The notes under the pieces are model-generated. The model was not told the origin of the DNA and made no database searches. It saw only the letters and a program-made list of their open reading frames with translations. The position numbers and the translations under genes are program-made. This document shows positions 8,875 through 61,499 of a DNA stretch of 64,000 bases, in pieces. Every line of letters starts with the position of its first letter. Position 1 is the first letter of the stretch. The stretch lies in the IMG/VR virus record IMGVR_UViG_3300005573_000005; one strand, given 5' to 3'. Origin of the DNA: a virus.

Positions 8875-8879
8875 GTTTT

Positions 8880-11189: not shown

Positions 11190-11239
11190 AAACAATTTTA
11201 ACTGACTGTTTCGTTTTTAAAAACCTCTTTAAGATTTGG

Positions 11240-11334
11240 GAAGGAGATGTAGGTTGGTTATGTTAGTCGTAGTAACAAATAAACTGACCTCCTCGTGTTT
11301 TATGTTGAACGGCTGACATAACCAACTTTCCTTC
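11240..11334 (+). promoter_or_regulatory. structured leader: long-range inverted repeat upstream of the sbcDC-like gene
   Basis: gaagga (11240-11245) pairs with tccttc (11329-11334). gttggttatgt (11253-11263) pairs with acataaccaac (11316-11326). The enclosed loop contains gacctcctc, which is complementary to SD-like GGAGG. Confidence 0.3.
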
Positions 11335-11347
11335 AGGAGTTTTAATT

Positions 11348-14212: not shown

Positions 14213-14213
14213 A

Positions 14214-15151: not shown

Positions 15152-15160
15152 GAGGAGGAT

Positions 15161-16150: not shown

Positions 16151-16271
16151 CCTTTATATATTTTATTATTTGAGATATAAAAGGTTTTTATGCCTATCCT
16201 AAGGAAAAGTTTAAAAGGCTTATGGAAAAGGCTTATAAAAGATATATAAAATTATTTGAGGAAACATAGTT

Positions 16272-31266: not shown

Positions 31267-31785
31267 ATGATAACAGAAAATCAAAAGAAAGAATTGTTAA
31301 AGCATATACAAGATAAAGTTTATTCTCGATATTCCGATTGGGAACTTTATATGAAAGCCTGGAAAGAACATAATGATAATTTTCGTACAGAGGTATGGTT
31401 TGATTTTGATGCTGATGATATAGTGATCATACCAGGGCTTTCTACAGGTACGTATTCAAAAAGAAATGGTGTGATTTTGTTCACAATTGAGCAGAATACT
31501 ATGGCAAATTCTACATGGAAGGAGGAAGATGTACTATGGGATTATGAAATAGAAGAGCTAGAAAAAATGCGTGAAGAGGATTATGTAGATCTGGATGATT
31601 TTTGTAAAATGAAAGGTATAAATTTGAAGCGTCGTATAGGGGAATTTGAGGCTGATTTCTTTAAAATAGATTGGGACAAAGTGGAATATCAATTATCTGA
31701 GGAGGGTTTAACAGAGTCAGAACAAGTTTCGGTTAAACGTTTTATTATAGATAAACTTTTTGAAAAATGTGCGAAAAGAAAGTAA
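31267..31785 (+). CDS. hypothetical protein ending in the KRFIIDKLFE tag
   Basis: Strong RBS (aaggagg). The C terminus is ..EQVSVKRFIIDKLFEKCAKRK. Confidence 0.5.
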   Translation: MITENQKKELLKHIQDKVYSRYSDWELYMKAWKEHNDNFRTEVWFDFDADDIVIIPGLSTGTYSKRNGVILFTIEQNTMANSTWKEEDVLWDYEIEELEKMREEDYVDLDDFCKMKGINLKRRIGEFEADFFKIDWDKVEYQLSEEGLTESEQVSVKRFIIDKLFEKCAKRK

Positions 31786-31809: not shown

Positions 31810-32826
31810 ATGTCTGAAAAGTGTACTATATTAGATAAGTCGTTTGAAGTTGTAAGAGGAGTTCCTGGTTCTCGTGAATTTCCCACAATAGTGTCTTACG
31901 TAGATTTTTTAAACAGTGTAGGAGCAAAAGCTACTTTACGTAACGGTAAAATTGATGTAGAAAGGAGTATTTTGCCTGCGTTTGTTTATATTCAGAATGG
32001 TAAGATAGCTTATCCGTTTGGTTGTGTAAAGGGTGCTTTTGTATTGGATTACATTTCTTCTCTTCGCTCTTTGGAGAACTGTCCTGAATATGTAGGTGGT
32101 TTTTTCTCTTGTACAGATACGCAAATTACTTCTCTTCAAGGCGCTCCTGAGCATGTAGGTGAGGATTTCGATTGTTCTTATTGTAAAAATCTGAAATCTC
32201 TAAAAGGTGCTCCGAAGTACGTAGGCAGAGATTTTAATTGTTTACGTTGTGAGAATCTTACATCTCTTGAAGGAGCTCCTGAGTATGTAGGCAGAAATTT
32301 TAACTGTTTTCGTTGTGAGAATCTTTTATCCCTGAAAGGAGCTCCAAAATGTGTAGGTGGATCTTTTTATATTTTGGCTTGTTTTCAGTTGATATTTTTG
32401 GAAGGAGCTCCCGACTATGTAAGTGGAGATTTTAATTGTTCTTATTGCTATAATCTTACATCTTTGGCGGGTGCTCCGAAGTATGTAGGCAGAAATTTCA
32501 ACTGTTTTCGTTGCGAGAATCTTAAATCTCTCGAAGGAGCTCCCGAATATGTAGGCAGAGATTTTAATTGTTTACGTTGTGAGAATCTTAAATCTCTTGA
32601 AGGTGCTCCTGAGCATGTGGGCAGAAATTTCGATTGTTCGGAGTGTGTAAAGTTGATTTCTCTGGAGGGCGTTCCTGAGTATATAGGCGGAGATTTTGAT
32701 TGTTCTAAATGTGAAAAGTTAACATCTTTGGAAGGCTTAAATATTGTGAAAGGTAAAATTTATGCTAAGGAAATACCTATAAAAGATTTAGCTGGTTTTC
32801 CAGAAAATAAAGTTGTTTTAAAGTAG
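31810..32826 (+). CDS. Cys-containing 22-residue LRR-like repeat protein, paralog 1 (degenerate N-terminal tag MSEKCTILDKSFE)
   Basis: Pre-repeat module (SREFPTIVSYVDFLNSVGAKATLRNGKIDVE..). About 11 units of L.GAPEYVG.DF.C..C.NL.S. Conserved cap LNIVKGKIYAKEIPIKDLAGFPENKVVLK. Confidence 0.7.
   Translation: MSEKCTILDKSFEVVRGVPGSREFPTIVSYVDFLNSVGAKATLRNGKIDVERSILPAFVYIQNGKIAYPFGCVKGAFVLDYISSLRSLENCPEYVGGFFSCTDTQITSLQGAPEHVGEDFDCSYCKNLKSLKGAPKYVGRDFNCLRCENLTSLEGAPEYVGRNFNCFRCENLLSLKGAPKCVGGSFYILACFQLIFLEGAPDYVSGDFNCSYCYNLTSLAGAPKYVGRNFNCFRCENLKSLEGAPEYVGRDFNCLRCENLKSLEGAPEHVGRNFDCSECVKLISLEGVPEYIGGDFDCSKCEKLTSLEGLNIVKGKIYAKEIPIKDLAGFPENKVVLK
32401..32524 (+). repeat. 124-bp tract identical, bar 1 mismatch, to 41425..41548 in paralog 3
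   Basis: Base-by-base comparison shows the only difference is aaatttCa versus aaatttTa. The flanking repeat units are clearly more diverged by eye. Confidence 0.9.
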
Positions 32827-33803: not shown

Positions 33804-34013
33804 ATGCCTCCACCTAACTTAAAGCATTGTGTTCAAAAAGTTATGAGAAAAGGTTGGTCAAAACCAAGAGCGTATGCAATTTGTGTTTCTTCTACTGGCT
33901 GGAGACGAGCTCCTGGTAAGAAATGGGTAAAAGATGGTAAAGTCTGGAAGAAGCCTACAAGTGAATCTGTGAAGACTTTTATTATTGATAAATTATTTGA
34001 ATCTGTGTTATGA
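33804..34013 (+). CDS. small basic protein ending in the KTFIIDKLFE tag
   Basis: Strong RBS (aaaggag). MPPPNLKHCVQKVMRKGWSKPRAYAIC... The C terminus is ..SESVKTFIIDKLFESVL. Confidence 0.5.
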   Translation: MPPPNLKHCVQKVMRKGWSKPRAYAICVSSTGWRRAPGKKWVKDGKVWKKPTSESVKTFIIDKLFESVL

Positions 34014-36445: not shown

Positions 36446-39004
36446 ATGAGTATTATAAACTACCCAAGACCAACATTATCGCTTACTGTTTGGAAGCTTG
36501 AAGGTGATACTTATGTTTTGTCTGATGAAGCACGAGAAGTTATTCTGTCTGCACTTCGTAGTTTTCCTTACGTGGATTTGTTAGATATTGCTAAAGAAAT
36601 ACACATAGTAGGTTCTATAACTACAAATACTTATGAAGACACTTGCGATGTGGATGTTCATATAATTCCTGATGAAGATAAACTTAAAAAATATCTTAAC
36701 TCTGCTAATTTATCGTTTGAAGATTTTAATGAGAGAGTAAAGAAATTTTATAAGAAAGAGATTTTTAAAATAGGTACTCATCCTGTTGAAATTTATATAC
36801 AAGCTAATCCTGCACAGGACTTATTATCTGATGGCGTATATTCTTTTACAAAAGATGTTTGGAAGAAAGGACCTTTGTTACGTGGTGAAACTTATAATCC
36901 GAGAAAAGTTTTTGCACACATTTACGAACTTTTGAAGAAGAAAATTAAGAATGTAGATGTTTTGTTAGGACAAGTTAAGCGTGATGCTATTGATTATTCG
37001 GCTATAAAAAAGGTTATAGATAAACTTTCTCCTGAAGCACGTAAAGTTCTTGAGAATGAATTGGAAGAAATTGTTGATAATTTGTTCAAGAATATTGACG
37101 AACTTTTAAAAGTTAAAAAAGAATGGGTAGAATTACGCAGAAAATCTTCTGCTCCTTCTTCCCCAGAGGAGGCGTTGAATTCTGTTAAACTGGTCAGAAA
37201 ATGGACAGATGCGAATGCTTTATTTAAGCTTCTTGATTTATACGAATACTTGTATATAATTTCTGAGTTAGAAAAAGCTGTTTCTGATGATGTTTTAACT
37301 CCTTATGAAATTGAAGATATAAGGAAGAAATTGTCATATAGGAAGGATGAATCTGTTAGGATGCTCTATGATATTAGTTTATTAGAATCAATTCTCGACG
37401 GTCATTATCTTTTAGAGGACCGTGAGACTCGTAGACAGGACTTAAAGAAGAAACGTGATTTAGGTTACTTAAAAGTAACTGATGCGGATATAGAAACTGC
37501 TCTGGATATAAGTGAGCCTTATGCTTACTGGATACTTATCCAGGTAACAAAAGGTACAATTAAGCTTCCTCAAGATAAAGACCTTATAGCAAAATTAATA
37601 AAAGATTTTGATTTTGTGAAAAAGTCTTCTCGTTTTACAGGTTCTAAAGATATCTATGCGTATAAAACTCTTCAAGACTTGAAAGCTCAAGTAGAAAAAT
37701 CTAAGACCTTTGAAATTTCTAAGGGAGAGCAGAAACGCAGAGCAACTAAAGAAGGTCAAAGGATAGTAGCTGAGGACCCTCCTTACACAGTAATAGAGAT
37801 AACAACTCCTGAGGCTTCTGCTAAACTTCTTAGAGATACAAAATGGTGTGTAAAAGACCCTGATTATTTCGCTAAATATATTAAATACGGACCTATTTAT
37901 TTAGTCTTAAAGAACGGTAAGAAATTTTTATGCTACAGTGACTATGATGGGTTTAGTGATGTGGAGAATCATCCTGTTAGGGAAGTTGATAAAAAATTGT
38001 TTGATATTTTTGTAAGATTAAAAACTAAAGTAGCTAGGTTTGCGTCTCCGGTTTCAGAGCTTTCTTTGGGCCAATATGTAAGTTTTTTAAGAGATAGCGG
38101 ATTAAAAGTTACTCTACGTAATGGTAAGATTGATGTAGAAGGAGATGTTTCTAAAAAGTTTGTTTATTGCAGAAACGGTAAAATAGTATATTCTTTTGGT
38201 AAAGTTAGTGGTAATTTTTTAGTTGAAGGACTACCACTTCGTACTCTTGAAGGAGCTCCTGAGTACGTAGGTGGTGACTTTGATTGTTCTGGATGTTATG
38301 AACTTACATATCTAAAAGGAGCTCCCAGACGTGTAGAAGGTGTTTTTCGTTGTATTGATTGTAAAGATCTTCTTTCCCTTGAAGGTGCTCCGGAGTATGT
38401 GGGAAAAGATTTTGATTGTCGTCATTGTTACAGTCTTACATCTCTAAAAGGAGCTCCAGAGCGTGTAGGTAGAGATTTTGATTGTTCTTATTGTCACGGT
38501 CTTACATCTCTAAAAGGAGCTCCTAGGCGTGTAGAAGGCAATTTTAATTGTTCAGAATGTGAAAATCTTAAATCTCTTGAAGGAGCACCAGAGTATGTAG
38601 GCGGAAATTTTTATTGTTGGGCTTGTAAAAATCTTACTTCTTTTGAAGGTGCTCCAGAGTATGTGGGCGGAAATTTATATTGTTTGGGTTGTGAAAATCT
38701 TAAATCTCTTCAAGGCGCTCCTGAGTATGTTGGTGGAGATTTTGATTGTTCTTATTGCCCTAGTCTTACATCTCTAAAAGGAGCTCCAGAGCGTGTAGAA
38801 GGTCATTTTGTTTGTTCTGGTTGTATAAACCTTACATCTCTTGAAGGAGCTTCTGAGTACGTAGGTGGCGACTTTTATTGTGCTTATTGTCCTAATTTAA
38901 CTTCTTTGAAAGGTTTAAAAGTAGTAAAGGGTAAAATTTATGCTAAAGGTACTCCTATAAAAGATTTAGCTGGTTTTCCAGAAGATAAAGTTGTTTTGAA
39001 GTAA
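36446..39004 (+). CDS. three-part protein: N-terminal minimal nucleotidyltransferase (Pol-beta fold), a central domain of unknown function, and a C-terminal Cys-LRR-like repeat array (paralog 2)
   Basis: NTase signature IHIVGSITTNTYEDTCDVDVHI plus a downstream HPVEIYIQ. The central domain is shared with 40141..41856. Then the pre-repeat module, about 12 x 22-aa units, and the cap LKVVKGKIYAKGTPIKDLAGFPEDKVVLK. Confidence 0.65.
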   Translation: MSIINYPRPTLSLTVWKLEGDTYVLSDEAREVILSALRSFPYVDLLDIAKEIHIVGSITTNTYEDTCDVDVHIIPDEDKLKKYLNSANLSFEDFNERVKKFYKKEIFKIGTHPVEIYIQANPAQDLLSDGVYSFTKDVWKKGPLLRGETYNPRKVFAHIYELLKKKIKNVDVLLGQVKRDAIDYSAIKKVIDKLSPEARKVLENELEEIVDNLFKNIDELLKVKKEWVELRRKSSAPSSPEEALNSVKLVRKWTDANALFKLLDLYEYLYIISELEKAVSDDVLTPYEIEDIRKKLSYRKDESVRMLYDISLLESILDGHYLLEDRETRRQDLKKKRDLGYLKVTDADIETALDISEPYAYWILIQVTKGTIKLPQDKDLIAKLIKDFDFVKKSSRFTGSKDIYAYKTLQDLKAQVEKSKTFEISKGEQKRRATKEGQRIVAEDPPYTVIEITTPEASAKLLRDTKWCVKDPDYFAKYIKYGPIYLVLKNGKKFLCYSDYDGFSDVENHPVREVDKKLFDIFVRLKTKVARFASPVSELSLGQYVSFLRDSGLKVTLRNGKIDVEGDVSKKFVYCRNGKIVYSFGKVSGNFLVEGLPLRTLEGAPEYVGGDFDCSGCYELTYLKGAPRRVEGVFRCIDCKDLLSLEGAPEYVGKDFDCRHCYSLTSLKGAPERVGRDFDCSYCHGLTSLKGAPRRVEGNFNCSECENLKSLEGAPEYVGGNFYCWACKNLTSFEGAPEYVGGNLYCLGCENLKSLQGAPEYVGGDFDCSYCPSLTSLKGAPERVEGHFVCSGCINLTSLEGASEYVGGDFYCAYCPNLTSLKGLKVVKGKIYAKGTPIKDLAGFPEDKVVLK
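37371..39004 (+). repeat. segmental duplication, copy A (partner 40141..41856)
   Basis: Long collinear DNA similarity. For example 37428-37600 versus 40198-40370 differs at only a few positions per 100 nt by eye. The copy starts at the internal Met codon of MLYDISLLE. Confidence 0.85.
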
Positions 39005-39678: not shown

Positions 39679-40144
39679 AAGATATAAAGGTAAATGGGGC
39701 AGGTTCAGAAAAGACACAGGTGAATTAAAGTCTACTCATGATACTAAAGAAAAATGTCTTGCAGCTATTCGAGCTGTTTATTGGAGTATGGGTAAGAGAG
39801 GTGAAAAGCACGAAGGTGTTACTACTACAGCTTCTATAGCTACTTTACCTAAATCTTTTGGTTATTTAAGACCTTTCTATGTATGTAATACTTGTAGAGT
39901 AATTTTAGACCAACCTACTTGTCCTGTTTGTAAAGGGAAGGCGGTTAAGATTTCTTCGTTAGAGGATTTAGGTATTACTGTAAAAGAACTAACAGATTCT
40001 TTTTATGATGGTTTACTTACGGAAGATAAAAAGTCCTTGGCAGATCTTCTGAAGAAGATGAATTGGTTGATTGCAACTATTATAGGTGCAGGTGCTTTTG
40101 CTTTGAAAATAAAGCGTGATTTGTCTAAAGTGGACTTAAAATGA
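39662..40144 (+). CDS. hypothetical protein with a zinc ribbon and a C-terminal TM helix
   Basis: ATG 39662 follows ggagg. CNTCRVILDQPTCPVCKGK, and a hydrophobic WLIATIIGAGAFALKI. Confidence 0.4.
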   Translation: MPYICKRYKGKWGRFRKDTGELKSTHDTKEKCLAAIRAVYWSMGKRGEKHEGVTTTASIATLPKSFGYLRPFYVCNTCRVILDQPTCPVCKGKAVKISSLEDLGITVKELTDSFYDGLLTEDKKSLADLLKKMNWLIATIIGAGAFALKIKRDLSKVDLK

Positions 40145-41856
40145 CGATTTACGATACAAATTTGATTGAATTTGTTCTTGACGGCTATTATCTCTTAGAG
40201 GACCGTGAGACTCGCAGGCAGGACTTAAAGAAAAAACGTGATTTAGGTTACTTAAAAGTAACTGATGCGGATATAGAAACTGCTCTGGATATAAGCGAGC
40301 CTTACGCTCACTGGATACTTATTCAGGTAACAAAAGGTACAATTAAGTTTCCTCAGGATAAAGACTTTATAACTCAGTTATTAAAAGACTTTGATTTTGT
40401 GAAAAAGTCTTCTCGTTTTACGGGTTTTAAAGATATCTATGCGTATAAAACTCTTCAAGACCTTAAAGCTCAAGTAGAGAAATCTAAGACCCTTGAAATT
40501 TCTAAAGGTGAGCAGAAACGCAGAGCAACTAAAGAAGGTCAAAGGGTAGTAGCTAAAGACCCTTCTTACACGGTGATAGAGATAACAACTCCGGAGGCTT
40601 CTGCTGAACTCCTTAGAGGTACAGAATGGTGTGTAAAAGATCCTGATTATTTTGCTGATTATATTGAATATGGACCTGTTTATTTAGTTTTAAAGAACGA
40701 TAAGAAATTTTTATGCTACAGTGATTATGATGGGTTTAGCGATATGGAAGATCATCCTGTTAAGAGAGTAGATAAGAAATTGTTGGGTATCTTTATAAAA
40801 TTAGGAACTAAAGTACTCAGGTTTGTAAGTGCCTCAAGTTTAGATTTATCTTTAGAACAATATGTAAGTTTTTTAAAAGACAGAGGCGTGAAAGCTACTA
40901 TAAGGGACGGCAAGATTGATGTAGAAGGCGATATTTTTGCGGAGTATGTTTATTATAAAGGAAGCGAAATAGTTTATCCTTTTGGTAAAGTTAGTGGTAA
41001 TTTTTCAGTTGAAGGACTTCCACTTCGTACTTTAAAGAATTCTCCTGAGTACGTAGGAGACGACTTTAATTGTTCTGTATTTGATAAACTTATTACTCTT
41101 GAAGGAGCTCCAGAGCGTGTAGAAGGCACTTTTGATTGTTCGTATTGCGATGGTCTTACTTCCCTTGAAGGAGCACCAGAGTATGTGGGGCGGATGTTTA
41201 ATTGTTCTCAGTGTCACGGTCTGACATCTCTAAAAGGAGCTCCCAGGCGTGTAGAAGTGTTTTGGTGTTCTGGTTGTGAAAATCTTAAATCTCTTGAAGG
41301 AGCTCCGGAGCATGTTGGCAGAGATTTTGATTGTTCTTATTGCGATAGTCTTACATCACTAAAAGGAGCTCCCAGGCGTGTAGAAGTGTTTAAGTGTTAT
41401 TCCTGTAAAAATCTTATCTCCCTTGAAGGAGCTCCCGACTATGTAAGTGGAGATTTTAATTGTTCTTATTGCTATAATCTTACATCTTTGGCGGGTGCTC
41501 CGAAGTATGTAGGCAGAAATTTTAACTGTTTTCGTTGCGAGAATCTTACATCTCTAAAAGGAGTTCCTAAGCGTGTAGGTAGAGATTTTAAGTGTTTTTA
41601 TTGCCGTAGTCTTACATCTCTTGAAGGAGCTCCTGAGTATGTAGGTAAATTTTTTGATTGTTCTTATTGCGATAGTCTTACATCTCTAAAAGGAGCTCCA
41701 GAGTACGTAGGTGGCGATTTTTATTGTGCTTATTGTTCTAAGCTTACTTCCTTACAAGGTCTGAAAGAAGTGAAAGGTATAATTTATGCTGAAGGAACTC
41801 CTATAAAAGATTTAGCAGGTTTTCCAGAAGATAAAGTTTATTTTGGGACAAAATAA
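40141..41856 (+). CDS. Cys-LRR-like repeat protein, paralog 3: an N-terminally shortened duplicate of 36446..39004 that lacks the NTase domain
   Basis: MTIYDTNLIEFVLDGYYLLEDRETRRQDLKKKRDLGYLKVTDADIETALDISEPYAHW... aligns with residues about 309 onward of the 852-aa protein. About 12 repeat units and the cap LKEVKGIIYAEGTPIKDLAGFPEDKV. Confidence 0.7.
   Translation: MTIYDTNLIEFVLDGYYLLEDRETRRQDLKKKRDLGYLKVTDADIETALDISEPYAHWILIQVTKGTIKFPQDKDFITQLLKDFDFVKKSSRFTGFKDIYAYKTLQDLKAQVEKSKTLEISKGEQKRRATKEGQRVVAKDPSYTVIEITTPEASAELLRGTEWCVKDPDYFADYIEYGPVYLVLKNDKKFLCYSDYDGFSDMEDHPVKRVDKKLLGIFIKLGTKVLRFVSASSLDLSLEQYVSFLKDRGVKATIRDGKIDVEGDIFAEYVYYKGSEIVYPFGKVSGNFSVEGLPLRTLKNSPEYVGDDFNCSVFDKLITLEGAPERVEGTFDCSYCDGLTSLEGAPEYVGRMFNCSQCHGLTSLKGAPRRVEVFWCSGCENLKSLEGAPEHVGRDFDCSYCDSLTSLKGAPRRVEVFKCYSCKNLISLEGAPDYVSGDFNCSYCYNLTSLAGAPKYVGRNFNCFRCENLTSLKGVPKRVGRDFKCFYCRSLTSLEGAPEYVGKFFDCSYCDSLTSLKGAPEYVGGDFYCAYCSKLTSLQGLKEVKGIIYAEGTPIKDLAGFPEDKVYFGTK
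41425..41548 (+). repeat. 124-bp tract identical, bar 1 mismatch, to 32401..32524 in paralog 1
   Basis: See 32401..32524. Encodes LEGAPDYVSGDFNCSYCYNLTSLAGAPKYVGRNFNCFRCENL in both genes. Confidence 0.9.
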
Positions 41857-41913
41857 AAGATTTGCGTAGGGTTTAAGTTTTGCGAAAGATAAAATTTTGA
41901 ATCTGGTTTTATT

Positions 41914-41960
41914 CTTTTAAGTTTGTGGAGTAGAACTAACAATAACAAAAAAGTAGGAGG
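41914..41960 (+). promoter_or_regulatory. conserved leader/promoter-like element upstream of a tagged gene
   Basis: cTTTTAAGTTTGTGGAGTAGAACTAACAATAACAAAAAAGTAGGAGG. Related copies lie at 59731..59778 and 60331..60368. Confidence 0.4.
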
Positions 41961-41968
41961 TTAATAAA

Positions 41969-42991
41969 ATGTCTAAACGTTATATTATAGATAAGTTATT
42001 TGAAGCCGTAGATGCGGATAAAACGCCTGTAAGTTCTCGTGAGTTCCCCACAATAGAGTCTTATGTTGACTACTTGAACAGTAAGGGGATAAAAGCATCT
42101 TTACGTAATGGTAAGATTGATGTAGAAGGTGACATTTCTGCGAAGTATGTTTATTACAAAGGAGACGAAATAGTTTATCCTTTTGGCAAAGTTAATGGTA
42201 ATTTCTCAGTTGAAAAACTTCCGCTTCGTACTTTAAAGAACTCACCTGAGTGGGTAGGAGGTGGCTTTAATTGTTCTGCATGTGATAAACTTATTACTCT
42301 TGAAGGAGCTCCTGAGTATGTAAGTGGTAATTTTTATTGTCTTAATTGCGGTAGCCTTACATCTCTTGAAGGAGCTCCAGGGCGTGTAGGTGGAGACTTT
42401 AGTTGCTCTTATTGTGATAAGCTTACATCTCTTGAAGGAGCTCCTAGGCGTGTAGGTAGAGATTTTGATTGTTCTGCTTGTAAAAATCTTATTTCCTTAG
42501 AAAGTGCTCCATCGTATGTAGGTAGAGATTTTGATTGTTCTTATTGTCATGGTCTCACATCTCTAAAAGGATTTCTTGAGTATGTGGGTGGTAATTTTTA
42601 TTGTGACAAATGCGATAGCCTTACATCTCTTGAAGGGGTTCCAGAGTATGTAGGCGGAGATTTTGGTTGTTCTTATTGCGATAATCTTACATCTTTAAAA
42701 GGAGCTCCTAAGCGTGTAAATGGTGTTTTTGATTGTTCTCATTGTGGGGGGCTGACTTCCTTAGAAGGAGCTCCTAAGTATGTAGATAGATATTTTAATT
42801 GCTCTTCTTGTCATAACCTTACTTCTCTTGAAGGAGCTCCTGAGTATGTAGGAGGCGACTTTAATTGTTCTCGTTGTCCTAAGCTTACTTCCTTACAAGG
42901 TCTGAAAGAAGTGAATGGTAAAATTTATGCTTCAAAAACTCCTATAAAAGATTTAGCTGGTTTTCCAGAAGATAAAGTTATTTTGGAATAA
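41969..42991 (+). CDS. Cys-LRR-like repeat protein, paralog 4, with the N-terminal MSKRYIIDKLFE tag
   Basis: Strong RBS (aggagg). Tag, then the pre-repeat module (SREFPTIESYVDYLNSKGIKASLRNGKIDVEGD..), about 10 units, and the cap LKEVNGKIYASKTPIKDLAGFPEDKVILE. Confidence 0.7.
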   Translation: MSKRYIIDKLFEAVDADKTPVSSREFPTIESYVDYLNSKGIKASLRNGKIDVEGDISAKYVYYKGDEIVYPFGKVNGNFSVEKLPLRTLKNSPEWVGGGFNCSACDKLITLEGAPEYVSGNFYCLNCGSLTSLEGAPGRVGGDFSCSYCDKLTSLEGAPRRVGRDFDCSACKNLISLESAPSYVGRDFDCSYCHGLTSLKGFLEYVGGNFYCDKCDSLTSLEGVPEYVGGDFGCSYCDNLTSLKGAPKRVNGVFDCSHCGGLTSLEGAPKYVDRYFNCSSCHNLTSLEGAPEYVGGDFNCSRCPKLTSLQGLKEVNGKIYASKTPIKDLAGFPEDKVILE

Positions 42992-43258: not shown

Positions 43259-43622
43259 CAGTTTTGTTCAGATTTTTAAGAGGACTATGTTCCGTTTTTT
43301 CTGGAAAACTAAACAGGTTAAAGAACATTTGAAAAATCATCCGCATTGTGCTGTTTGCGGATATTTACCTAAATTTGGTCATAATGAAGTTCATCATATA
43401 ATACCTGTTTCAGTTGACCCTTCTTTAAAGAATGATCCTGAAAATTTAGTGACACTTTGTCACCATTGTCATAAAAGGTTTGGGCATTTCTCTAATTGGA
43501 AATACTGGAATCCAGATTTACGAAAGATTACACGTAATTTTTCTATAGGTATGGAAATGCTTTCTGCAGAAATAGCTTTTAAGGTTAATTATGAAAAAAG
43601 AAAAAATACTAAAGATTCTTGA
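43245..43622 (+). CDS. HNH endonuclease
   Basis: HPHCAVCGY..NEVHHIIPVSVDPSLKNDPENLVTLCHHCHKRFGH (Cys4 plus the H-N-H core). ATG 43287 is an alternative start. Confidence 0.75.
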   Translation: MIKYNSFVQIFKRTMFRFFWKTKQVKEHLKNHPHCAVCGYLPKFGHNEVHHIIPVSVDPSLKNDPENLVTLCHHCHKRFGHFSNWKYWNPDLRKITRNFSIGMEMLSAEIAFKVNYEKRKNTKDS

Positions 43623-44076
43623 AGATATTGATAGTTTTTCTACGCTTTGTAATTGTCCTTATAGGAAGAGTGTTCTAAAGAGATTGTCTTTCTTTGCTTA
43701 CGACAATCTTAGTAACATTGTTTCTTTTAGAAACGTTTTATCTTTTTCTTCTGATTTTGCTATTAATGTTTTTCTTTTTCTTATTTCTGATTCCTTTACT
43801 GCTTTGATAAAGAAAGACTTTAATGCAGAAATTATTCCTTATTGTTCTGGTTTTTTACGCTTTGTTAATGTTTCAGGGGAGAAATTCGGTATTCTTAAGT
43901 TTGAAGAAAGGGATGCTGTTCTTAAGGATGTTGAATTTTCTTTTGTTTTTTCTGATACAGATTGGCGTCCTCCTTTCTTCAGTATGTTAGTTTCTACTTC
44001 TAGATTTAAAATACAAGACGGTTTTAAATATAATAAGTTTACTGTAGTTCTAAAGAGGTTTAAGCAAAATGAATAA
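43591..44076 (+). CDS. hypothetical protein
   Basis: 161-aa ORF overlapping both neighbours. No motif recognised. Confidence 0.4.
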   Translation: MKKEKILKILEDIDSFSTLCNCPYRKSVLKRLSFFAYDNLSNIVSFRNVLSFSSDFAINVFLFLISDSFTALIKKDFNAEIIPYCSGFLRFVNVSGEKFGILKFEERDAVLKDVEFSFVFSDTDWRPPFFSMLVSTSRFKIQDGFKYNKFTVVLKRFKQNE

Positions 44077-45788: not shown

Positions 45789-46183
45789 AACAGAAACCTG
45801 TTATATTAAATTATGGAGGGTTAGTAAAAGCTTTAGGAAGAAAACCTGTTTTGTTATCTTTAAGGAAGGACCAACTTATAGGGAGGCTTACAGATCAGTC
45901 TTTACATGAATTGCGTAGTTTTGTTTCAAAAGGGAAAGATTTCTGGTTTAGTTTACCTGTTGTTAAGAGCAGTACGTTTGAAGAGTTGCTTGAAGAGTTC
46001 CTGACAAGTTCAGTTTCATGTCGTAATACTGTTTACAGATATGGTAAAAATTCCGATTATATGTTTCTTTTAGTAGAGAAAAATGGTTCAGCAGAATTGT
46101 ACATAGATGATGAACAAATGCGGAATTATTTAGCAAATTTGTTAGATTTTACTTTGATGGAGGAGAATAAAGATGCAAATTAG
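45776..46183 (+). CDS. hypothetical protein
   Basis: 135-aa ORF overlapping both neighbours. Start uncertain (TTG 45776 or GTG 45785). Confidence 0.4.
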   Translation: MSNVKQKPVILNYGGLVKALGRKPVLLSLRKDQLIGRLTDQSLHELRSFVSKGKDFWFSLPVVKSSTFEELLEEFLTSSVSCRNTVYRYGKNSDYMFLLVEKNGSAELYIDDEQMRNYLANLLDFTLMEENKDAN

Positions 46184-46616
46184 ACAAAGTGTTGTAGGTG
46201 TATCTACAAGTCCTGTAGTTGCAATGCTGGTTGAAAATTCTTCAACTATGGTAGTTGCTCTAAGAGTGACTAATTTGAGTAATGTTCAAGTTTCTGTTGA
46301 TGTAGAGGATTACGACGGTTCAAGCTGGACTTCTGTTCTTACAGCTTCTGCTACTGTTGAAGCGAAGGGTGTAAAAGACATAGTAGCTAATCTTAAAAGA
46401 AGTTCTACTTATCGTGTTCTTGTTACTGCGAATGCTAAAGGACAGGGACTTGTTAAAGTAGAACAAATTGTTTCTGAATATGACGTATCGGCTACAATAG
46501 CTGCGGATGATCGTCAACAGGTTCCTGGTGCTTGTTCTTCAATGTGTCAGACAGCTTGTCAGTTGTCTTGCGAACAGAATTGTCAGTCAGTTTGTGAACT
46601 TGCAAATCAAGCATAA
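46173..46616 (+). CDS. beta-rich protein with a C-terminal (C-x3)5-C cysteine-ladder tail
   Basis: About 110 aa of alternating beta-strand-like sequence, then GACSSMCQTACQLSCEQNCQSVCELANQA. Followed by a clean hairpin terminator. Confidence 0.5.
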   Translation: MQIRQSVVGVSTSPVVAMLVENSSTMVVALRVTNLSNVQVSVDVEDYDGSSWTSVLTASATVEAKGVKDIVANLKRSSTYRVLVTANAKGQGLVKVEQIVSEYDVSATIAADDRQQVPGACSSMCQTACQLSCEQNCQSVCELANQA

Positions 46617-49247: not shown

Positions 49248-49526
49248 ATGGATAAAAACGGAATTTTAAAAATTTTATTCAGGAGATCTGAAGGTCTTCT
49301 TTCAGAAGATGTTACAGTTTTGTCTGATAGACCTGAGAAGGATGAAATTTTGCAAGATTTTGCTAAGAAGCATGGTGTAAAGTTTCGTAAAGATGGTAAA
49401 AAATTCCGTCTTAATGTACCTAAAGATAAATTGGGTAAAGTTTCTGCTACTCTTTCTTCTCTTGGTTTTGATGTTGCAATTGGGGATGAAAAACGATTAC
49501 AGAGAGGTTTAGCAGGACGGTTATGA
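49248..49526 (+). CDS. small hypothetical protein (weak tag-like N terminus MDKNGILKILFRRSE)
   Basis: 92-aa ORF overlapping the downstream start. Confidence 0.4.
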   Translation: MDKNGILKILFRRSEGLLSEDVTVLSDRPEKDEILQDFAKKHGVKFRKDGKKFRLNVPKDKLGKVSATLSSLGFDVAIGDEKRLQRGLAGRL

Positions 49527-49786
49527 ACAAGCATAAGATAATTGATATTTTATTTGAGAGTAAGAAGGATTTTGAACAGTTGTCAAGAGAAGGTCTTTTT
49601 GGTAAAACAAATAATTTGACTTACGATTCTTATACTAAAGTAAGAGATGCTTTTCAAAATCTTGAAAGAGTAATAGAACTTAGTTTTGGTGAGAATCAAG
49701 AGAAGATGAGAAAACTTCTCGGTTTATTACGGGAGGCTTTAGCTATTCTTGAACAAAATTATCCTGTCGAAGATAAAAAGGAATGA
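49523..49786 (+). CDS. small hypothetical protein with a tag-like N terminus MNKHKIIDILFE
   Basis: 87-aa ORF whose N terminus is a variant of MSKRYIIDKLFE. Confidence 0.45.
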   Translation: MNKHKIIDILFESKKDFEQLSREGLFGKTNNLTYDSYTKVRDAFQNLERVIELSFGENQEKMRKLLGLLREALAILEQNYPVEDKKE

Positions 49787-49960: not shown

Positions 49961-50500
49961 ATGGCTAATGCATACGATTCAAAATATTTGGTTTTCAGAG
50001 ATGTTGTTAGAGATTATAAGAGATTTATTATTCCTTTTGCGAACGGTCTTACTTACAAACTACAAAATTTAGATGCGGTAAGTGTTGAGTGTTATGTATC
50101 TCTTGTTACTCTTCAAGGAGATTCTTACGGTATTATCGGAGATTTCGAATTAGCTCCTTTAGCAACATACACAGATGTGATTCCTTTTGAATGTGTTGCA
50201 GGAACAGAAGTTTCTGATCCTTTTCATCCTTATTTGTTTTTGGATTTACGTGTGGAACCTTTTGAAGGGAACGAGTGGAATACGTTGTTCAGGTATGGAC
50301 CTGTAGTTAAAGGCGTAGTAATTGAAGTTTGGCAAAATGCTCTTATGGATGTAAATAAAGAACATCCAGCACAAATACTGAGCGACCGAGAAAGATTTTT
50401 TGCTAGTTGTAGTGTTTCTTGTGAAACCTGGTGCGAATCTGGTTGCGAAACTGTTTGTCAATTTGATGTAATGTCTAAAAGTAATCCTGATGAACAGTAG
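49961..50500 (+). CDS. beta-rich protein with a C-terminal (C-x3)4-C cysteine-ladder tail
   Basis: ..FFASCSVSCETWCESGCETVCQFDVMSKSNPDEQ. Same architecture as 46173..46616. Confidence 0.5.
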   Translation: MANAYDSKYLVFRDVVRDYKRFIIPFANGLTYKLQNLDAVSVECYVSLVTLQGDSYGIIGDFELAPLATYTDVIPFECVAGTEVSDPFHPYLFLDLRVEPFEGNEWNTLFRYGPVVKGVVIEVWQNALMDVNKEHPAQILSDRERFFASCSVSCETWCESGCETVCQFDVMSKSNPDEQ

Positions 50501-56395: not shown

Positions 56396-58156
56396 ATGGC
56401 TACTATACCGCTCTATGTTTATGGACGTGCTGATACTGATTTTCTTATAACGGAAAAGTATGAGCAAAAACAATCTGATGGTTCAAGTAGAATTGTTCTT
56501 GTAGGAAAGATCCAAGAAGCAGATAAAGCTAATAGAAATGGTCGTATTTATCCAAGAAAGCTCTGGGAGAAAGTACTCTCTGAGAATTCTTCTTTTAAAA
56601 CCCTTCTTAAGGAACGTAAAGTACTTGGACAATTAGAGCATCCCGAGAAAGGAATATCCTCCTTAAAAGAGGTCTCTCATCTCGTTGAAGATGTATGGAT
56701 GGACCCTGCGACTGGAGCTGTCTATGGCAGGTTTCTTGTCTTAGACACTCCCAGCGGGAAGATTGTAAAAGAGCTCGTATCTGCTGGGATACCTGTAGGG
56801 GTTTCCAGTAGAGCTATGGGCTCTGTAAAAAGAAGTCCTGATGGCTACGATATTGTACAAGAAGATGGTTTTGAATTAAAGACTTTTGACTTTGTATGTG
56901 AGCCATCTGTAGTTGATGCTTATCCGTCTTATATAAAAGAAGCACTGGAAAATCTGTGTAAACAAAAGGAGACTAATATGAGTGATATAAAGAACGATAT
57001 TAAACTAATTTCAGAATGTGAGAGGTTTCTTGATTCCGTAGGGAGTGATTTTGCTTCTTCTAAGGAGATTTTAGAGAAGCTTGATATTGTTGACTCTTAT
57101 ATTTCTAAGCTTGCTTCTGTTGACCAGAGCCTTCGTTCAGATGCTGATATTTGTATAGGTAAATTGCTTGCTGTGAAGTCTATGCTCAAGAAATCTTTGA
57201 TAGAGTCAAGTACAGAGAGTAATGTACCTGTTGTGGAAGCAAAACCAGTAAGTAACAAAGAAGGAGATGCAAAAGTTGTGTCTAAGGTTGTTGAAGAATT
57301 ACTTACGGAGCTTCGTAGGGAGAAAAAAGAAGCTGAATCGAAAGAATCTAAGGTTGCAAAAGAAGAATCTGAGAAAGAAAGCGAAGTGAAAGAACCTGAG
57401 GTTGCAAAGGAAGAGCCTGGAAAAGAAGACGAAGTGAAAGAACCTGAGGTTGCGAAAGAAGAGTCTAGAAAAGAAGATGAAGTGAAAGAACCTGAGGTTG
57501 CGAAAGAAGAGCCTGGAAAAGAAGACGAAGTGAAAGAACCTGAGGTTGCGAAAGAAGAACCTAAAAAAGAAGACGAATTATCTTCAGATGAGAAGGAAGA
57601 AGTTCCTGTTGTTAAGGATAAATTTGAAGAACCTATAGAATTTAGAAGACGTCTTCTTAGACATAGAAGAATTAGACCAAGAAGGTTCTATAGACTTCCT
57701 TATTCTTCTGAAGACCGTTCTGATGGCGAAACTGCAGACGTATTTGACAAATCTGCGGAAATAATTGATGTTGCAGCTGAAGCTATAGATAAAGCTGCTG
57801 ATGTGATTGATAATTCAGCAGAACGTATTGCTAATCTCAGTGAGCTTGCTTCTTATCAAAGGGATTGTTTGAGAAGTGCAAATCAGTTTATATGTGCTCT
57901 TGTAGAACGTGGTCGTGAGATAAAGAAAGAATTATTTGTTTATAAGTTTTTAGAAGCTCGTCCAGATCTTAAAGGTCTTCGTGAGGAACTTAATAATTGT
58001 CGTACTGTTGTAGAATGTAAAGATTTGTTACACAATAAATACAAGATACCTTTGAATGAAATGGAGTTTGATTCAAAGAAGAAAGAAAAAGAGATATTAG
58101 AATCCAGTACAGAAAGTCGGAAAGGGTTTGTACACTTTCTGGCTAAACGATTGTAA
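56396..58156 (+). CDS. T4 gp21-like prohead core protease fused to an acidic repeat, scaffold-like C-terminal region
   Basis: ADKANRNGRIYPRKLWEKVL...VLGQLEHPEKG...VEDVWMD...GIPVGVSSRAMGS parallels T4 gp21 as I recall it (VNRNKRLYPKRILEKAV..ALGELNHP..IEDMWW..GWIPGVSSRGLGS). An E/K-rich repeat and helical region follow. Confidence 0.75.
   Translation: MATIPLYVYGRADTDFLITEKYEQKQSDGSSRIVLVGKIQEADKANRNGRIYPRKLWEKVLSENSSFKTLLKERKVLGQLEHPEKGISSLKEVSHLVEDVWMDPATGAVYGRFLVLDTPSGKIVKELVSAGIPVGVSSRAMGSVKRSPDGYDIVQEDGFELKTFDFVCEPSVVDAYPSYIKEALENLCKQKETNMSDIKNDIKLISECERFLDSVGSDFASSKEILEKLDIVDSYISKLASVDQSLRSDADICIGKLLAVKSMLKKSLIESSTESNVPVVEAKPVSNKEGDAKVVSKVVEELLTELRREKKEAESKESKVAKEESEKESEVKEPEVAKEEPGKEDEVKEPEVAKEESRKEDEVKEPEVAKEEPGKEDEVKEPEVAKEEPKKEDELSSDEKEEVPVVKDKFEEPIEFRRRLLRHRRIRPRRFYRLPYSSEDRSDGETADVFDKSAEIIDVAAEAIDKAADVIDNSAERIANLSELASYQRDCLRSANQFICALVERGREIKKELFVYKFLEARPDLKGLREELNNCRTVVECKDLLHNKYKIPLNEMEFDSKKKEKEILESSTESRKGFVHFLAKRL
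57383..57574 (+). repeat. 4 x 48-bp in-frame tandem repeat (EVKEPEVAKEEPGKED units), with a degenerate partial unit upstream from 57347
   Basis: The unit gaagtgaaagaacctgaggttgc(a/g)aa(g/a)gaagagcctggaaaagaagac repeats at 57383, 57431, 57479 and 57527. Confidence 0.9.
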
Positions 58157-58241: not shown

Positions 58242-59648
58242 ATGGCGAATGCACAGAATCTATATGAAGATATCCGCAAGGTTGGAGAAATGCTTGCGGA
58301 GAAGTGGTCAAATATGCCTAAGGATCAACTACCTTGCTTTGAGGACTATCCTGAGTCAAGGATAGACTTTCTGGAAGGTATTGAAGATCCTTGGAAGCGT
58401 AACCTGATTGCCATCCTTTGTGAGAACTATAGAAAACTTACAGAGGATGTGACAACTACAGGTCAATTGGCCACTTTCCCTCGCTATGTGTATCCACTGA
58501 TCCGTGCAGTGTATGCTAACATCATTACTGGCGAGCTATTTAGCGTTCAGCCTTTGACAGGTCCTACTGGATTGGTGTTCTACTGGGACATCATATACGG
58601 ATCTACAAAAGGCAACGTTACAGCTGGCAGTAAGATGTATGATGCTCTTGCAGGACCGATGACGAATGAGACAGATTATATCAGTGAAAAGATTAATAGT
58701 GAAGTACTGGCCAATGGGGATGGTAGTGCAAATCGTTTCACTGGTAATTTGTCCTGGATTCCTGTTAGAGCTGGATCTGTTATAATCACTGACGGAACTG
58801 AGACCTTTACGGATAACGGTAACGGGAATCTGACTGGCAGTGCAGGTGGTTCTGGAACGATTGACTATGTAACTGGTGCTTATGATATTACATTTAATGA
58901 AGCTCCTCCTTCTGGAGCTACTGTTGTGGCAGATTATTCCTACAATATGGAACAATCTGACCAGGTTCCAGAAGTAGAATTCCTGCTAACTTCATCACCA
59001 GTAGTAGCTCAACCGTTCAGACTACGTTCACGCTGGTCACAGGATGCCGAGTTTGACCTGAAGGCGGTGCATGGTATAGTTGCTGAAACAGAAATTGTAG
59101 GTTTCTTAGGGAATGAAATCCAGAAAGAGATCTACAATAAAATGATTCGGCAAGCTCGGGCAATTGCTCCTGGTGGTTATGTAGAGTGGGATCACACTCC
59201 GCCACTGGCAGTGCCTGAAGTCCTGCATCGTCAGACACTTGCATTGAAAGTTGTTCATGCAAGTAATGAAATCTTCAGACGTACGCAGAGATTCGGTGCA
59301 GACTGGATAGTCTGTGGTGTGGATTTTGCTGCGTACATTGAAGCTCTTCCAGACGGGTTCTTTACTCGGACTCCTGTAGCTCCTGGTACCGCAGGTGTCC
59401 ATAAGATTGGGACACTCCGTTCTGGTCAAGTGGTTTATAAGGATCCTGCATATCCAAGCAATGAGGCACTGCTGGGTCATAAGGGTACATCATTGCTCGA
59501 TGCGGGTATCATCCAGGCAGTTTACATTGGTCTTTATACAACTGATACTATCAGGCTGGATGACTTCCGTGTAAGGAAGGGGCTTGCTAACAAGTCCGCC
59601 ATAAAGGTAGTCAATCCACGGTATTATCAGAAGATGAGGATCGTGTAA
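58242..59648 (+). CDS. major capsid protein (T4 gp23-like HK97-fold family)
   Basis: Lies directly after the protease/scaffold. LIAILCENYRKL..TTTGQLATFPRYVYPLIRAVYANIITGELFSVQPLTGPTGLVFYW matches the conserved gp23-family N-terminal block (..dlvsvQPm.gP.g.vfy). Followed by a strong terminator. Confidence 0.7.
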   Translation: MANAQNLYEDIRKVGEMLAEKWSNMPKDQLPCFEDYPESRIDFLEGIEDPWKRNLIAILCENYRKLTEDVTTTGQLATFPRYVYPLIRAVYANIITGELFSVQPLTGPTGLVFYWDIIYGSTKGNVTAGSKMYDALAGPMTNETDYISEKINSEVLANGDGSANRFTGNLSWIPVRAGSVIITDGTETFTDNGNGNLTGSAGGSGTIDYVTGAYDITFNEAPPSGATVVADYSYNMEQSDQVPEVEFLLTSSPVVAQPFRLRSRWSQDAEFDLKAVHGIVAETEIVGFLGNEIQKEIYNKMIRQARAIAPGGYVEWDHTPPLAVPEVLHRQTLALKVVHASNEIFRRTQRFGADWIVCGVDFAAYIEALPDGFFTRTPVAPGTAGVHKIGTLRSGQVVYKDPAYPSNEALLGHKGTSLLDAGIIQAVYIGLYTTDTIRLDDFRVRKGLANKSAIKVVNPRYYQKMRIV

Positions 59649-59663
59649 ACTGTGAAGGATTTG

Positions 59664-59705
59664 GAGCCTGTCGGTTCTATCCCGGCAGGCTCTTTATTCT
59701 TCTTT
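59664..59705 (+). terminator. rho-independent terminator after the capsid gene
   Basis: gagcctgtcgg (59664-59674), loop ttctatc, ccggcaggctc (59682-59692; one G-U pair), then tttattcttcttt. Confidence 0.75.
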
Positions 59706-59730
59706 GCGATTTTTTGGAAGCTGTTTTACT

Positions 59731-59778
59731 TTTTTAAGTTTGTGGAGTAAAACTAGCAAAAACAAACAAAATAGGAGG
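59731..59778 (+). promoter_or_regulatory. conserved leader/promoter-like element upstream of a tagged gene
   Basis: TTTTTAAGTTTGTGGAGTAAAACTAGCAAAAACAAACAAAATAGGAGG. Compare 41914..41960. Confidence 0.4.
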
Positions 59779-59784
59779 TGAAAA

Positions 59785-60336
59785 ATGTCTAAACGTTATA
59801 TTATAGACAAATTGTTTGAGGCTGCCGGTGTGGTTTTTGAAATAAAGTTTCCTACAATAGAGTCTTATGTTGGTTTCTTAAACAGTAAAGGACTAAAAGC
59901 TACTCTACGAGATGGTAAGATTGATGTGGTAGGAGATGTTTGGTCAAGATTTATTTATATTGAGGATGAAAAGATAGTTTATCCTTTTGGTAAAATTAAC
60001 GGTGGTTTTTCAGTTTCAGGGCTTCCTCTTCATACTCTTGAAGGAGCTCCTAAGTATGTAGGTGGATTTTTTGATTGTTCTTCTTGCCGTAATCTTACAA
60101 CTCTAAAAGGAGCTCCCAGGCATGTAGAAGGCCATTTTGATTGTTCTAATTGTATAAACCTTACATCCCTTGAAGGCGCTCCTGAGTACGTAGGGGATAA
60201 CTTTTATTGTGCTTATTGTCCTAATTTAACTTCTTTGAAGGGTTTAAAGGTAGTAAAGGGTAAAATTTATGTTAGAGGAACTCCTATAAAAGACTTTTCA
60301 GGTTTTTCAAAAGATAAAGTTAAATTGTCTTTTTAA
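59785..60336 (+). CDS. short Cys-LRR-like repeat protein, paralog 5, with the N-terminal MSKRYIIDKLFE tag
   Basis: Tag, pre-repeat module (FPTIESYVGFLNSKGLKATLRDGKIDVVGD..), about 4 units, and the cap LKVVKGKIYVRGTPIKDFSGFSKDKVKLSF. Confidence 0.7.
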   Translation: MSKRYIIDKLFEAAGVVFEIKFPTIESYVGFLNSKGLKATLRDGKIDVVGDVWSRFIYIEDEKIVYPFGKINGGFSVSGLPLHTLEGAPKYVGGFFDCSSCRNLTTLKGAPRHVEGHFDCSNCINLTSLEGAPEYVGDNFYCAYCPNLTSLKGLKVVKGKIYVRGTPIKDFSGFSKDKVKLSF

Positions 60337-60368
60337 GTTTGCGGGTAAGAACGAACAGAAATAGAGGA
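60331..60368 (+). promoter_or_regulatory. third, more diverged copy of the leader element
   Basis: TTTTAAGTTTGCGGGTAAGAACGAACAGAAATAGAGGA. Overlaps the last codons of 59785..60336. Confidence 0.3.
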
Positions 60369-60374
60369 TATAAC

Positions 60375-61499
60375 ATGTCTAAGCGTTATATTATAGACAA
60401 ATTGTTTGAAGTTGTAAAAGCCAGGGAGAGTACAGATAGCAGAACATTAGGTGGCAAAACTCTGGAACAATTTAAAGAAGCTGTTGAGGGGCTTGAAGAT
60501 TTTTATCCTTATGCTGTAGAAGTTGGTTTAGAGTTTCTTTCCGGGCGACAGAAACAAAGTTGGGATTTTATCGATACTGCGAGATTGGCACAGCAATACC
60601 AGAAGCTTCTTAAAGATGAGCCGTTAGATACGGACTTTTTAGATGAAACTATTTTTATTTTAAGAAATAATATAGGGAAAATTTTGGCTAATTCTATGTA
60701 TATTTATTATCCAACAGGTGTTTTTCAACTTATGGATGAAGAGTTAGATGCTTTTAGTGATTTTATTGCAGATGAGTATGGTAATTGCAGAGCAACAGAA
60801 GCTCCAGAAAAGTTTGAAAAAGCTTTAAGAGAACTAACTATTGCAAAGACAGATCGTCAGAAGCTTGTAGCAATAAATAATACTCTTGATATTGTGCATG
60901 GGATAGGCGAAGTTGCATATTGGTTTGTTAAAGGTGGAAAAATTACTCTGGATAAGTTATCGGGTAAGCTTCAGGAGAGTAATTTAGAAGATAAAGCAAG
61001 AATTCCGCCGGGATTTGAATTTTTGGTGAAAGAAGCGAAGAAATATAAGAGTGCTGAGGAATTTGTAGAAGCGCAGGCAAAGAAGATAACAGAAAAGATG
61101 GTAGCTAAAATTTGTGATATTTATGATGTTCCTAAAATAGATGTTGAGTTTTTAGATACAGATTTAACATCTGGGGGTGGATTGGGGAGTTTTAAGGTTT
61201 TTCGTGGTAAATATCCGTTTATAGAAATTGCGAAAGAGGGGTTGTTAGATAATCATTCGCTTTATCATGAGTTGGCTCATTATATTTTATGGACAAGGAA
61301 AAGAGAAAACGTTTTTCATCCGGTATTAGCACATGGAGAAGAACATGACAGAATAATGTGCAGAATAGCTCATTTTTTAAAACCAGATTATATTTCAAGG
61401 TCTCAACTTATTGACATTTATAATTATGCTACAAAAAAATTAAATAAAACAGAACGACCTGAAGCTAAGGCGAGTGAAGCTGTAGCAAAAGAAGAATAG
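60375..61499 (+). CDS. MSKRYIIDKLFE-tagged protein with a C-terminal HExxH (zinc metallopeptidase-like) motif
   Basis: ATG 60375 (the listed ORF starts at TTG 60339). N terminus MSKRYIIDKLFEVVKA. NHSLYHELAHYILW contains H-E-L-A-H. Confidence 0.5.
   Translation: MSKRYIIDKLFEVVKARESTDSRTLGGKTLEQFKEAVEGLEDFYPYAVEVGLEFLSGRQKQSWDFIDTARLAQQYQKLLKDEPLDTDFLDETIFILRNNIGKILANSMYIYYPTGVFQLMDEELDAFSDFIADEYGNCRATEAPEKFEKALRELTIAKTDRQKLVAINNTLDIVHGIGEVAYWFVKGGKITLDKLSGKLQESNLEDKARIPPGFEFLVKEAKKYKSAEEFVEAQAKKITEKMVAKICDIYDVPKIDVEFLDTDLTSGGGLGSFKVFRGKYPFIEIAKEGLLDNHSLYHELAHYILWTRKRENVFHPVLAHGEEHDRIMCRIAHFLKPDYISRSQLIDIYNYATKKLNKTERPEAKASEAVAKEE

Follow-up and report, generated by a model that had tools for sequence, protein, structure and literature searches.

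The 64,000-nucleotide stretch of viral DNA analysed here (IMG/VR record IMGVR_UViG_3300005573_000005, hereafter the window) contains the head genes of a tailed T4-like phage and, at the ends of seven of its proteins, copies of a short peptide (hereafter the tag) that probably serves as a head-targeting signal. All genes of the window are on the + strand, its GC content is 34%, and genes are designated below by the position of their first nucleotide. The product of the protease gene (Table 1) was assigned to Pfam Peptidase_S77 (9e-22) and PHROG 207 and matched PDB 5jbl (2.5e-14), and alignment to the latter identified the catalytic His (LEHP) and Ser (GVSSR) motifs. Its acidic tail of ~390 amino acids contains 17 [LI]xE sites, the highest [LI]xE density among the large proteins examined, and includes acidic units, KEDEVKEPEVAKEEP, encoded by 5.3 copies of a 48-nucleotide repeat (57324-57577). 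Three conserved Glu sites were recognised across 18 capsid propeptides, (I/V)(D/N)F(L/M)E-G, L-x-E-N and (R/K)-L-x-E, and alignment to gp23 placed the T4 cleavage position among them. Homologs of gp13, gp15, the sheath and T4 baseplate proteins are encoded 3' of the capsid region.

A six-frame search identified the 12-residue peptide MSKRYIIDKLFE as the exact N-terminus of the open reading frames (ORFs) 41969, 59785 and 60375. A position-specific scoring matrix (PSSM) built from the copies and run over all + strand frames of the window returned seven matches with scores of 28-37, the next best scoring 9.5; these represent five N-terminal and two C-terminal copies of (S)K(R)[YF]IIDKLFE, and no internal copy was found in that scan. 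All seven lie at most two residues from the start Met or 3-6 residues from the stop, an arrangement with a chance probability of ~2e-9 for seven copies, or ~1e-6 if five independent families are counted. A degenerate back-translated DNA pattern for [YF]IIDKLFE gave five matches, versus none in 100 shuffles. The five N-terminal copies begin at Met1 and are 12-13 residues long, in keeping with a short propeptide at the extreme N-terminus such as the capsid targeting sequence (CTS) of T4, which has 10-19 amino acids. The two C-tagged proteins, 31267 and 33804, end in ..SVKRFIIDKLFEKCAKRK and ..SVKTFIIDKLFESVL, respectively. Gene callers in the public data predicted the same tagged ORFs, including the C-tagged ones of 69 and 172 amino acids, and started 60375 at its ATG rather than at the upstream in-frame TTG at 60339. 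A preliminary description of this DNA had listed the three exact copies and the two at extreme C-termini, all of which were recovered, together with a gp21-like protease and two tagged genes directly downstream of the capsid gene (59785 and 60375), for which the same holds. Among the diverged N-terminal copies that it proposed, those of 31810 and 49523 were retained and that of 49248 (MDKNGILKILF..), which had no PSSM score, was dropped; the L-F-E ending that it gave for the tag applies to six copies, 31810 having S-F-E.

Table 1. Tag copies, upstream cassettes and head genes in the window (Cys-LRR, Cys-containing leucine-rich repeat)
Feature	Coordinates	Strand	Remarks
Exact N-terminal tag MSKRYIIDKLFE	41969..42004	+	On Cys-LRR protein 41969-42991
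Exact N-terminal tag MSKRYIIDKLFE	59785..59820	+	On Cys-LRR protein 59785-60336, first gene 3' of the capsid gene
Exact N-terminal tag MSKRYIIDKLFE	60375..60410	+	On orphan HExxH protein 60375-61499
Diverged N-terminal tag MSEKCTILDKSFE	31810..31848	+	On Cys-LRR protein 31810-32826; P3 = S, not L
Diverged N-terminal tag MNKHKIIDILFE	49523..49558	+	On 87-amino-acid acidic protein 49523-49786
C-terminal tag SVKRFIIDKLFE	31729..31764	+	6 residues before the stop of 31267-31785; L-T-E 5 residues upstream
C-terminal tag SVKTFIIDKLFE	33966..34001	+	3 residues before the stop of 69-amino-acid basic protein 33804-34013
Conserved 5' cassette (TTTTAAGTTTGTGGAGTA... and ribosome-binding site)	41912..41968	+	Upstream of tagged gene 41969
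Same 5' cassette	59729..59784	+	Upstream of 59785; after terminator-like hairpin 59663-59693, 3' of the capsid gene
Diverged copy of 5' cassette	60328..60374	+	Upstream of tagged gene 60375
gp21-type prohead protease with fused acidic, repeat-containing, scaffold-like C-terminal region	56396..58156	+	Proposed docking partner and processing enzyme
gp23-type major capsid protein	58242..59648	+	Pfam Gp23 9e-42; PDB 5vf3 alignment; propeptide sites FLE45, LCE61, RKLTE68

Tags were confined to 31.2-61.5 kb of the window, and none was found in its 8.3 kb of upstream replication genes or its 4 kb of downstream tail genes. ORFs of the window with an [LI]xE ending at residues 8-16 numbered 14 versus 9.2 expected, an excess due to the tagged genes only. 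Weaker leader-like N-termini with [LI]-x-E at residues 10-12 were noted in 19035-19442 (MKRQNNLLDIFE), 40141-41856 (MTIYDTNLIE) and 43591-44076 (MKKEKILKILE); as a class, such N-termini in the window were not above chance.

After removal of the tag the carriers, 69-374 amino acids long, formed five families unrelated by BLASTP. Paralogy links 31810, 41969 and 59785 (BLASTP 1e-48 to 1e-120 with the tag removed), so that the independent families number five rather than seven; these three are Cys-containing leucine-rich repeat (LRR) proteins with repeats of ~23 residues, and two longer, untagged LRR paralogs (36446-39004 and 40141-41856) match them. The window thus has five Cys-LRR paralogs, the tag being present on the three short ones only, and the family has >7,500 metagenomic relatives, with weak ones in Vibrio phages SRILMA/TDDLMA and Lak megaphages. 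An AlphaFold model of 59785 from a 15-sequence alignment had a mean predicted local distance difference test (pLDDT) score of 92, with ~55 for residues 1-20; in it the tag forms a low-confidence helix (residues 3-13) that stands apart from the folded domain and is connected to it by a flexible coil (14-24). Foldseek searches with the LRR model gave weak generic LRR matches only. The HExxH protein 60375 (374 amino acids), the acidic 49523 (87), 31267 (172) and the very basic 33804 (69) were similar neither to one another nor to LRR proteins. No homolog of 60375 except itself was found among 5.8 billion proteins, its match to SprT-like proteins was below threshold, and AlphaFold prediction from the single sequence gave no usable model (pLDDT 37). 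A cluster look-up identified no sequence variants of the tagged proteins. For 31267, an exhaustive HMMER search yielded five remote homologs (P0210-P0215; E 2e-12 to 3e-5), which aligned to residues ~20-151 and stop 0-15 residues past a common ..DW..I..QL.. motif. None has the tag, which indicates that the 27-residue tail EGLTESEQVSVKRFIIDKLFEKCAKRK was added to a family otherwise lacking it.

Codon usage was compared over the ten codons shared by the five strong copies. At least eight synonymous changes were counted (AAA/AAG, ATA/ATT, GAT/GAC, TTA/TTG/CTT, GAA/GAG) versus three non-synonymous nucleotide changes (R/T, Y/F); with an expected synonymous share of 16.7% for random single-base changes in the tag sequence, this comparison indicates that selection is on the peptide and not on the DNA. 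The two C-terminal copies have a common derived form (S-V-K, with F for Y) written in different codons, which speaks for their maintenance and against decaying scars. The three exact copies additionally have ~55 nucleotides upstream in common, TTTTAAGTTTGYGGRGTA followed by an A-rich stretch and a ribosome-binding site, and their mobile unit is therefore a 5' cassette that joins a promoter-like element and a ribosome-binding site to the tag; the remaining four copies have no flanking DNA in common. No T4 late promoter (TATAAATA) was found upstream of the tagged genes. The preliminary description had noted conservation of the DNA underlying the tag in four copies, to which the ~55 upstream nucleotides of the three exact copies are to be added. 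Its view of the carriers as unrelated to each other stands for the five families and not for the three Cys-LRR paralogs, and that of the tag as a movable module is borne out by those families and by the untagged homologs of 31267.

Close relatives of the phage were found neither in INPHARED, where the best capsid identity was 34%, nor in IMG/VR; metagenomic capsid homologs reached 43-65% identity. In each of the seven relatives examined for it (L130, L132, L133, L135-L138), as far as this part of the genome was recovered, the gene directly 5' of the capsid gene encodes a long Peptidase_S77 protein (451-563 amino acids) similar to that of the window. In L133 (capsid 65% identical), where a homolog of window gene 61578 (E 1e-17) confirms the synteny, two unrelated ORFs of 118 amino acids (4610-4966 and 6214-6570) start with MNNKQLARKLVE. 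Both are located between the capsid gene and gp13, the slot occupied in the window by 59785 and 60375; the two leader copies differ by two synonymous changes, and the ORFs share nothing past the leader, nor any upstream DNA. The third capsid propeptide site reads RKLTE68 in the window and RKLYE in L133, and the tag or leader ends in DKLFE and RKLVE, respectively. An ORF with a Tn7 TnsA-like endonuclease domain interrupts the L133 capsid gene (468-2915), suggesting an intron or homing-endonuclease insertion. L136 (capsid 47% identical; JGI 3300035099, Ga0373621_000023, a 172-kb contig) contains at least 19 small ORFs with a common leader, M-x-x-F-E-x-A-V-x-x-L-(L/V)-x-E, within 21 kb (1600-21300) around its Peptidase_S77 and Gp23 genes; with the leader removed, at least 15 unrelated families can be distinguished among these ORFs, which may constitute a very large head-cargo arsenal. 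N-termini of L132 ending in KLLE or KLIE were suggestive, were not shared exactly and were not counted. Matches to [YF]IIDKLFE elsewhere, obtained with a pattern that also accepted FIIDKFFE, comprised seven single ones in IMG/VR and at least 117 in metagenome contigs, nearly all out of frame or internal; terminal ones were few and no more than expected by chance among the matches listed. Taken together, the leaders of L133 and L136 indicate that a short portable leader ending in L-x-E beside the head protease is recurrent in the clade. Its sequence differs by lineage; co-evolution with a scaffold partner would produce such a pattern.

A possible source of the tag was recognised in the LRR family. 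A conserved internal helix of LRR homologs in other T4-like phages aligns with it (for example, LKQYIIDWLCEN and VKNEIIDWIVNN). In those proteins the helix sits downstream of a further leader resembling the T4 CTS (MKSLNTYVIEGL..), and one of the genes lies directly 3' of a Peptidase_S77 gene. At the equivalent place the long LRR paralogs of the window read HPVKRVDKKLLG and HPVREVDKKLFD. Judged by these alignments, the LRR-family helix may have given rise to the tag, which would later have spread to other genes. Neither the leader MK.L..Y..E nor the K..IIDWI helix of the LRR homologs in L011 and L012 was found on non-LRR ORFs there, so they provide no evidence of portability. A nucleoside diphosphate kinase encoded in L012, a T4-like phage contig, at 10383-10787 has an N-terminal extension of ~12 residues, MKQLKDYIKRNG, resembling the CTS-like leaders of the adjoining LRR genes.

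The closest known counterpart of the tag is the CTS on the T4 internal proteins known as IPI, IPII and IPIII, reportedly described by Mullaney & Black in 1996 as removed by the gp21 prohead protease. It is an N-terminal sequence of 10-19 residues that binds the scaffolding core and is cut off by gp21 (PMC9026906, PMC8442874, PMC3012670, PMC5694885) after L/I-x-E (PMC9026906); in IPII and IPIII it reads MKTYQEFIAE (PMC8442874). Residues 4 and 7 serve mainly targeting, 8 and 10 processing (PMC9026906, PMC8442874, PMC3012670, PMC5694885), and the highly diverse internal proteins of T-even phages have only the CTS in common (PMC3012670). The arrangement in the window is similar in that a short N-terminal leader, here of 12 amino acids, with an L/I-x-E end is carried by unrelated, partly small and basic proteins, that gp21- and gp23-family genes are present, and that the leader forms a cassette-like unit with its upstream DNA. 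It differs in that the tag also occurs at C-termini, that the scaffold is apparently fused to the protease instead of being a separate gp22, and that the carriers include Cys-LRR and HExxH proteins. In a direct comparison the tag had nothing in common with MKTYQEFIAE beyond the K-x-Y start and the [LI]-x-E end, and is thus an analogue and not a homologous member of the CTS group.

On balance we consider it probable that the tag is a lineage-specific analogue of the T4 CTS that docks cargo on the protease-scaffold fusion; docking, cleavage, packaging and injection are what we infer from the comparisons above. The tag would dock its carrier onto a scaffolding core formed by the long acidic C-terminal region of the gp21-type protease, and the capsid shell would then close around this core. 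The protease would cut after the terminal K-L-F-E, freeing N-terminally tagged cargo inside the head, and would degrade the scaffold at its many [LI]xE sites. The cargo, consisting of the short Cys-LRR proteins, the HExxH protein and the small basic and acidic proteins, would stay with the DNA and probably be delivered to the host. The C-tagged proteins could dock likewise and be released either by a cut at the Glu that closely precedes the tag (GLTE in 31267, PTSE in 33804) or through destruction of the scaffold. A combined targeting and cleavage signal had been proposed in the preliminary description, and the CTS-like length, the L-x-E end, selection at the peptide level and the leaders of relatives agree with that proposal; the C-terminal copies do not.

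Several observations weigh against a CTS-like role. In the T4 model the signal occupies the N-terminus alone, and copies at C-termini are not predicted by it; a cut after L-F-E would leave a C-terminal tag attached to its protein, so that these two copies need a different or extended mechanism. The L-T-E five residues upstream of the 31267 tag and the P-T-S-E abutting the 33804 tag make removal of a C-propeptide faintly conceivable, the Glu upstream of the latter having T, not L or I, three residues before the cut. The 31810 tag departs from the L-x-E rule with its Ser. No separate gp22-like scaffold gene was identified in the window, and none lies between the protease and capsid genes. As a helix, the window tag was no more amphipathic than shuffled sequences. 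No shared leader was found in the retrieved parts of L130, L134 and L135 (capsid 62-64% identical) or of the more distant L137 and L138. The upstream sequence of the three exact copies could reflect duplication of one 5' cassette, and the alignment with the internal LRR helix leaves room for an ancestral LRR piece that spread and is not a dedicated signal.

Processing of C-termini has a loose precedent in T4, where Alt loses 63 C-terminal residues at LTE-619 for a purpose unknown and where proteases of the gp21 family lose their own C-termini (PMC5694885, PMC9026906). Such gp21-dependent processing is paralleled by the L-T-E in 31267. To the Alt C-propeptide no targeting function is assigned, and it shares no sequence with the N-terminal CTS; in the window, N- and C-terminal elements are one and the same peptide. 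Ejection or anti-restriction proteins are also guided into the prohead by N-terminal regions in giant phages of the phiKZ/SPN3US type, whose head proteins have long propeptides, and in P1, where DarB has a capsid-targeting signal (PMC5694885, PMC9024508). The giant-phage propeptides are, unlike the tag, mostly >100 residues long and are cut at A/S/G-x-E by a gp21 homolog (PMC5694885, PMC9024508), and the Dar proteins of P1, unlike the carriers here, have no consensus signal in common (PMC5694885, PMC9024508). A broader reading, which we put forward only tentatively, is that the tag is a head-loading peptide independent of position, recognised at either terminus by the protease-scaffold fusion and defining an expandable arsenal of packaged and probably injected proteins in some T4-like phages, numbering seven in this phage and at least 19 in a relative. 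The concept as such is already established for T-even phages; new would be the use of the same tag at C-termini, the kinds of cargo and the scale in the relative.

Alternatively, the tag might bind the inner face of the gp23-type shell directly, from either terminus and without proteolytic removal, in the manner of encapsulin cargo, the L-x-E being incidental or secondary. Encapsulins provide known cases of HK97-fold shells binding short terminal peptides, and their cargo-loading peptides are likewise short, portable, C- or N-terminal and attached to unrelated cargo. The occurrence of one core at both N- and C-termini, and the conserved S-V-K..F subtype of the C-terminal copies, would suit such binding. 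We nevertheless regard it as unlikely: the K-L-x-E ending recurs in the independent L133 leader and L-x-E in the L136 leaders and at the capsid propeptide sites, which argues for a link with the protease, and in the T4 precedent docking is on the scaffold core (PMC5694885). Encapsulins have no portal, tail, scaffold or maturation protease. An actual encapsulin system was rejected, the locus having a gp23-type capsid, a gp21-type protease, gp13, gp15, a sheath and T4 baseplate proteins; to our knowledge the tag does not resemble encapsulin consensus peptides.

It also appears improbable that the tag docks its carriers to some other partner, whether a tail, baseplate or outer-capsid site (the LRR proteins then being adhesins) or a chaperone, or that it is a recognition or degradation signal for a protease outside the head. 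Binding is what LRR proteins typically do, phages with multiple receptor-binding proteins use short conserved terminal anchors, and use at either terminus would be appropriate for a generic docking peptide. Against this, the highly basic 69-residue, acidic 87-residue and HExxH carriers are unlikely parts of a fibre or adhesin, the tail module has no tag, and the long LRR paralogs, which are likelier structural proteins, are untagged. Tagged genes cluster instead beside the protease and capsid genes in three related phages.

The tag would have no targeting role at all if it belonged to a duplicated 5' expression cassette, comprising a promoter-like element, the ribosome-binding site and the first 12 codons, or if it were a recombination scar that shuffling spread among the five LRR paralogs. 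Such an origin draws on the upstream DNA common to 41969, 59785 and 60375, on the paralogy of three carriers and on the resemblance of the tag to the internal LRR helix, and is still quite improbable. The two C-terminal copies and 49523 are without common flanking DNA, the excess of synonymous changes points to selection on the peptide, and in unrelated carriers the Glu marks the exact end of the similarity. With a scar, a position within six residues of a protein end would not occur in all seven cases, and L133 and L136 exhibit the same phenomenon with different sequences. A leader of a ribosomally synthesised and post-translationally modified peptide was rejected, as the carriers have 69-374 amino acids and include folded LRR domains, in place of the short core expected after such a leader, and the tag is also C-terminal.

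Further genes of the window were noted beside this system. Located between tagged genes are those for an enzyme resembling arginine dihydrolase/dimethylargininase (32851-33783; NCBIfam 8e-27) and for a phosphatidylserine decarboxylase (34010-34729; Pfam 7e-29), both auxiliary genes unusual in a phage. C-terminal tails of Cys-x3-Cys repeats (for example, CETWCESGCETVCQ) occur in window proteins 46173-46616 and 49961-50500 and in L133 (6706-7122), the L133 homolog having a weak Pfam match to radical-SAM-target Cxxx repeats (SAM, S-adenosylmethionine). The replication module (window 1696-2334 and 4283-7339; L141 12654-15644) encodes a family A DNA polymerase fused to uracil-DNA glycosylase and exonuclease domains, unlike that of T4, and contains a faint match to sigma-70 region 2, suggesting a phage sigma-like factor.

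Proteins that travel in the phage head and enter the host together with its DNA act before any other phage weapon, T4 examples being IPI, which counters GmrSD, and Alt, directed at the host RNA polymerase; such proteins are very hard to recognise from sequence. If the proposed role is correct, the terminal tag of a lineage would allow the injected effectors of uncultivated phages to be read from their sequence, and head-borne proteins could be listed by a simple rule, the presence of a short lineage-specific tag linked to a gp21-type protease. Cys-LRR proteins, an HExxH protein and small charged proteins are the candidate effectors to which it points here. The protein-packaging toolbox of T4 could thereby widen, possibly to C-terminal fusions, and the at least 19 tagged ORFs around the head genes of L136 suggest that such arsenals can be large.

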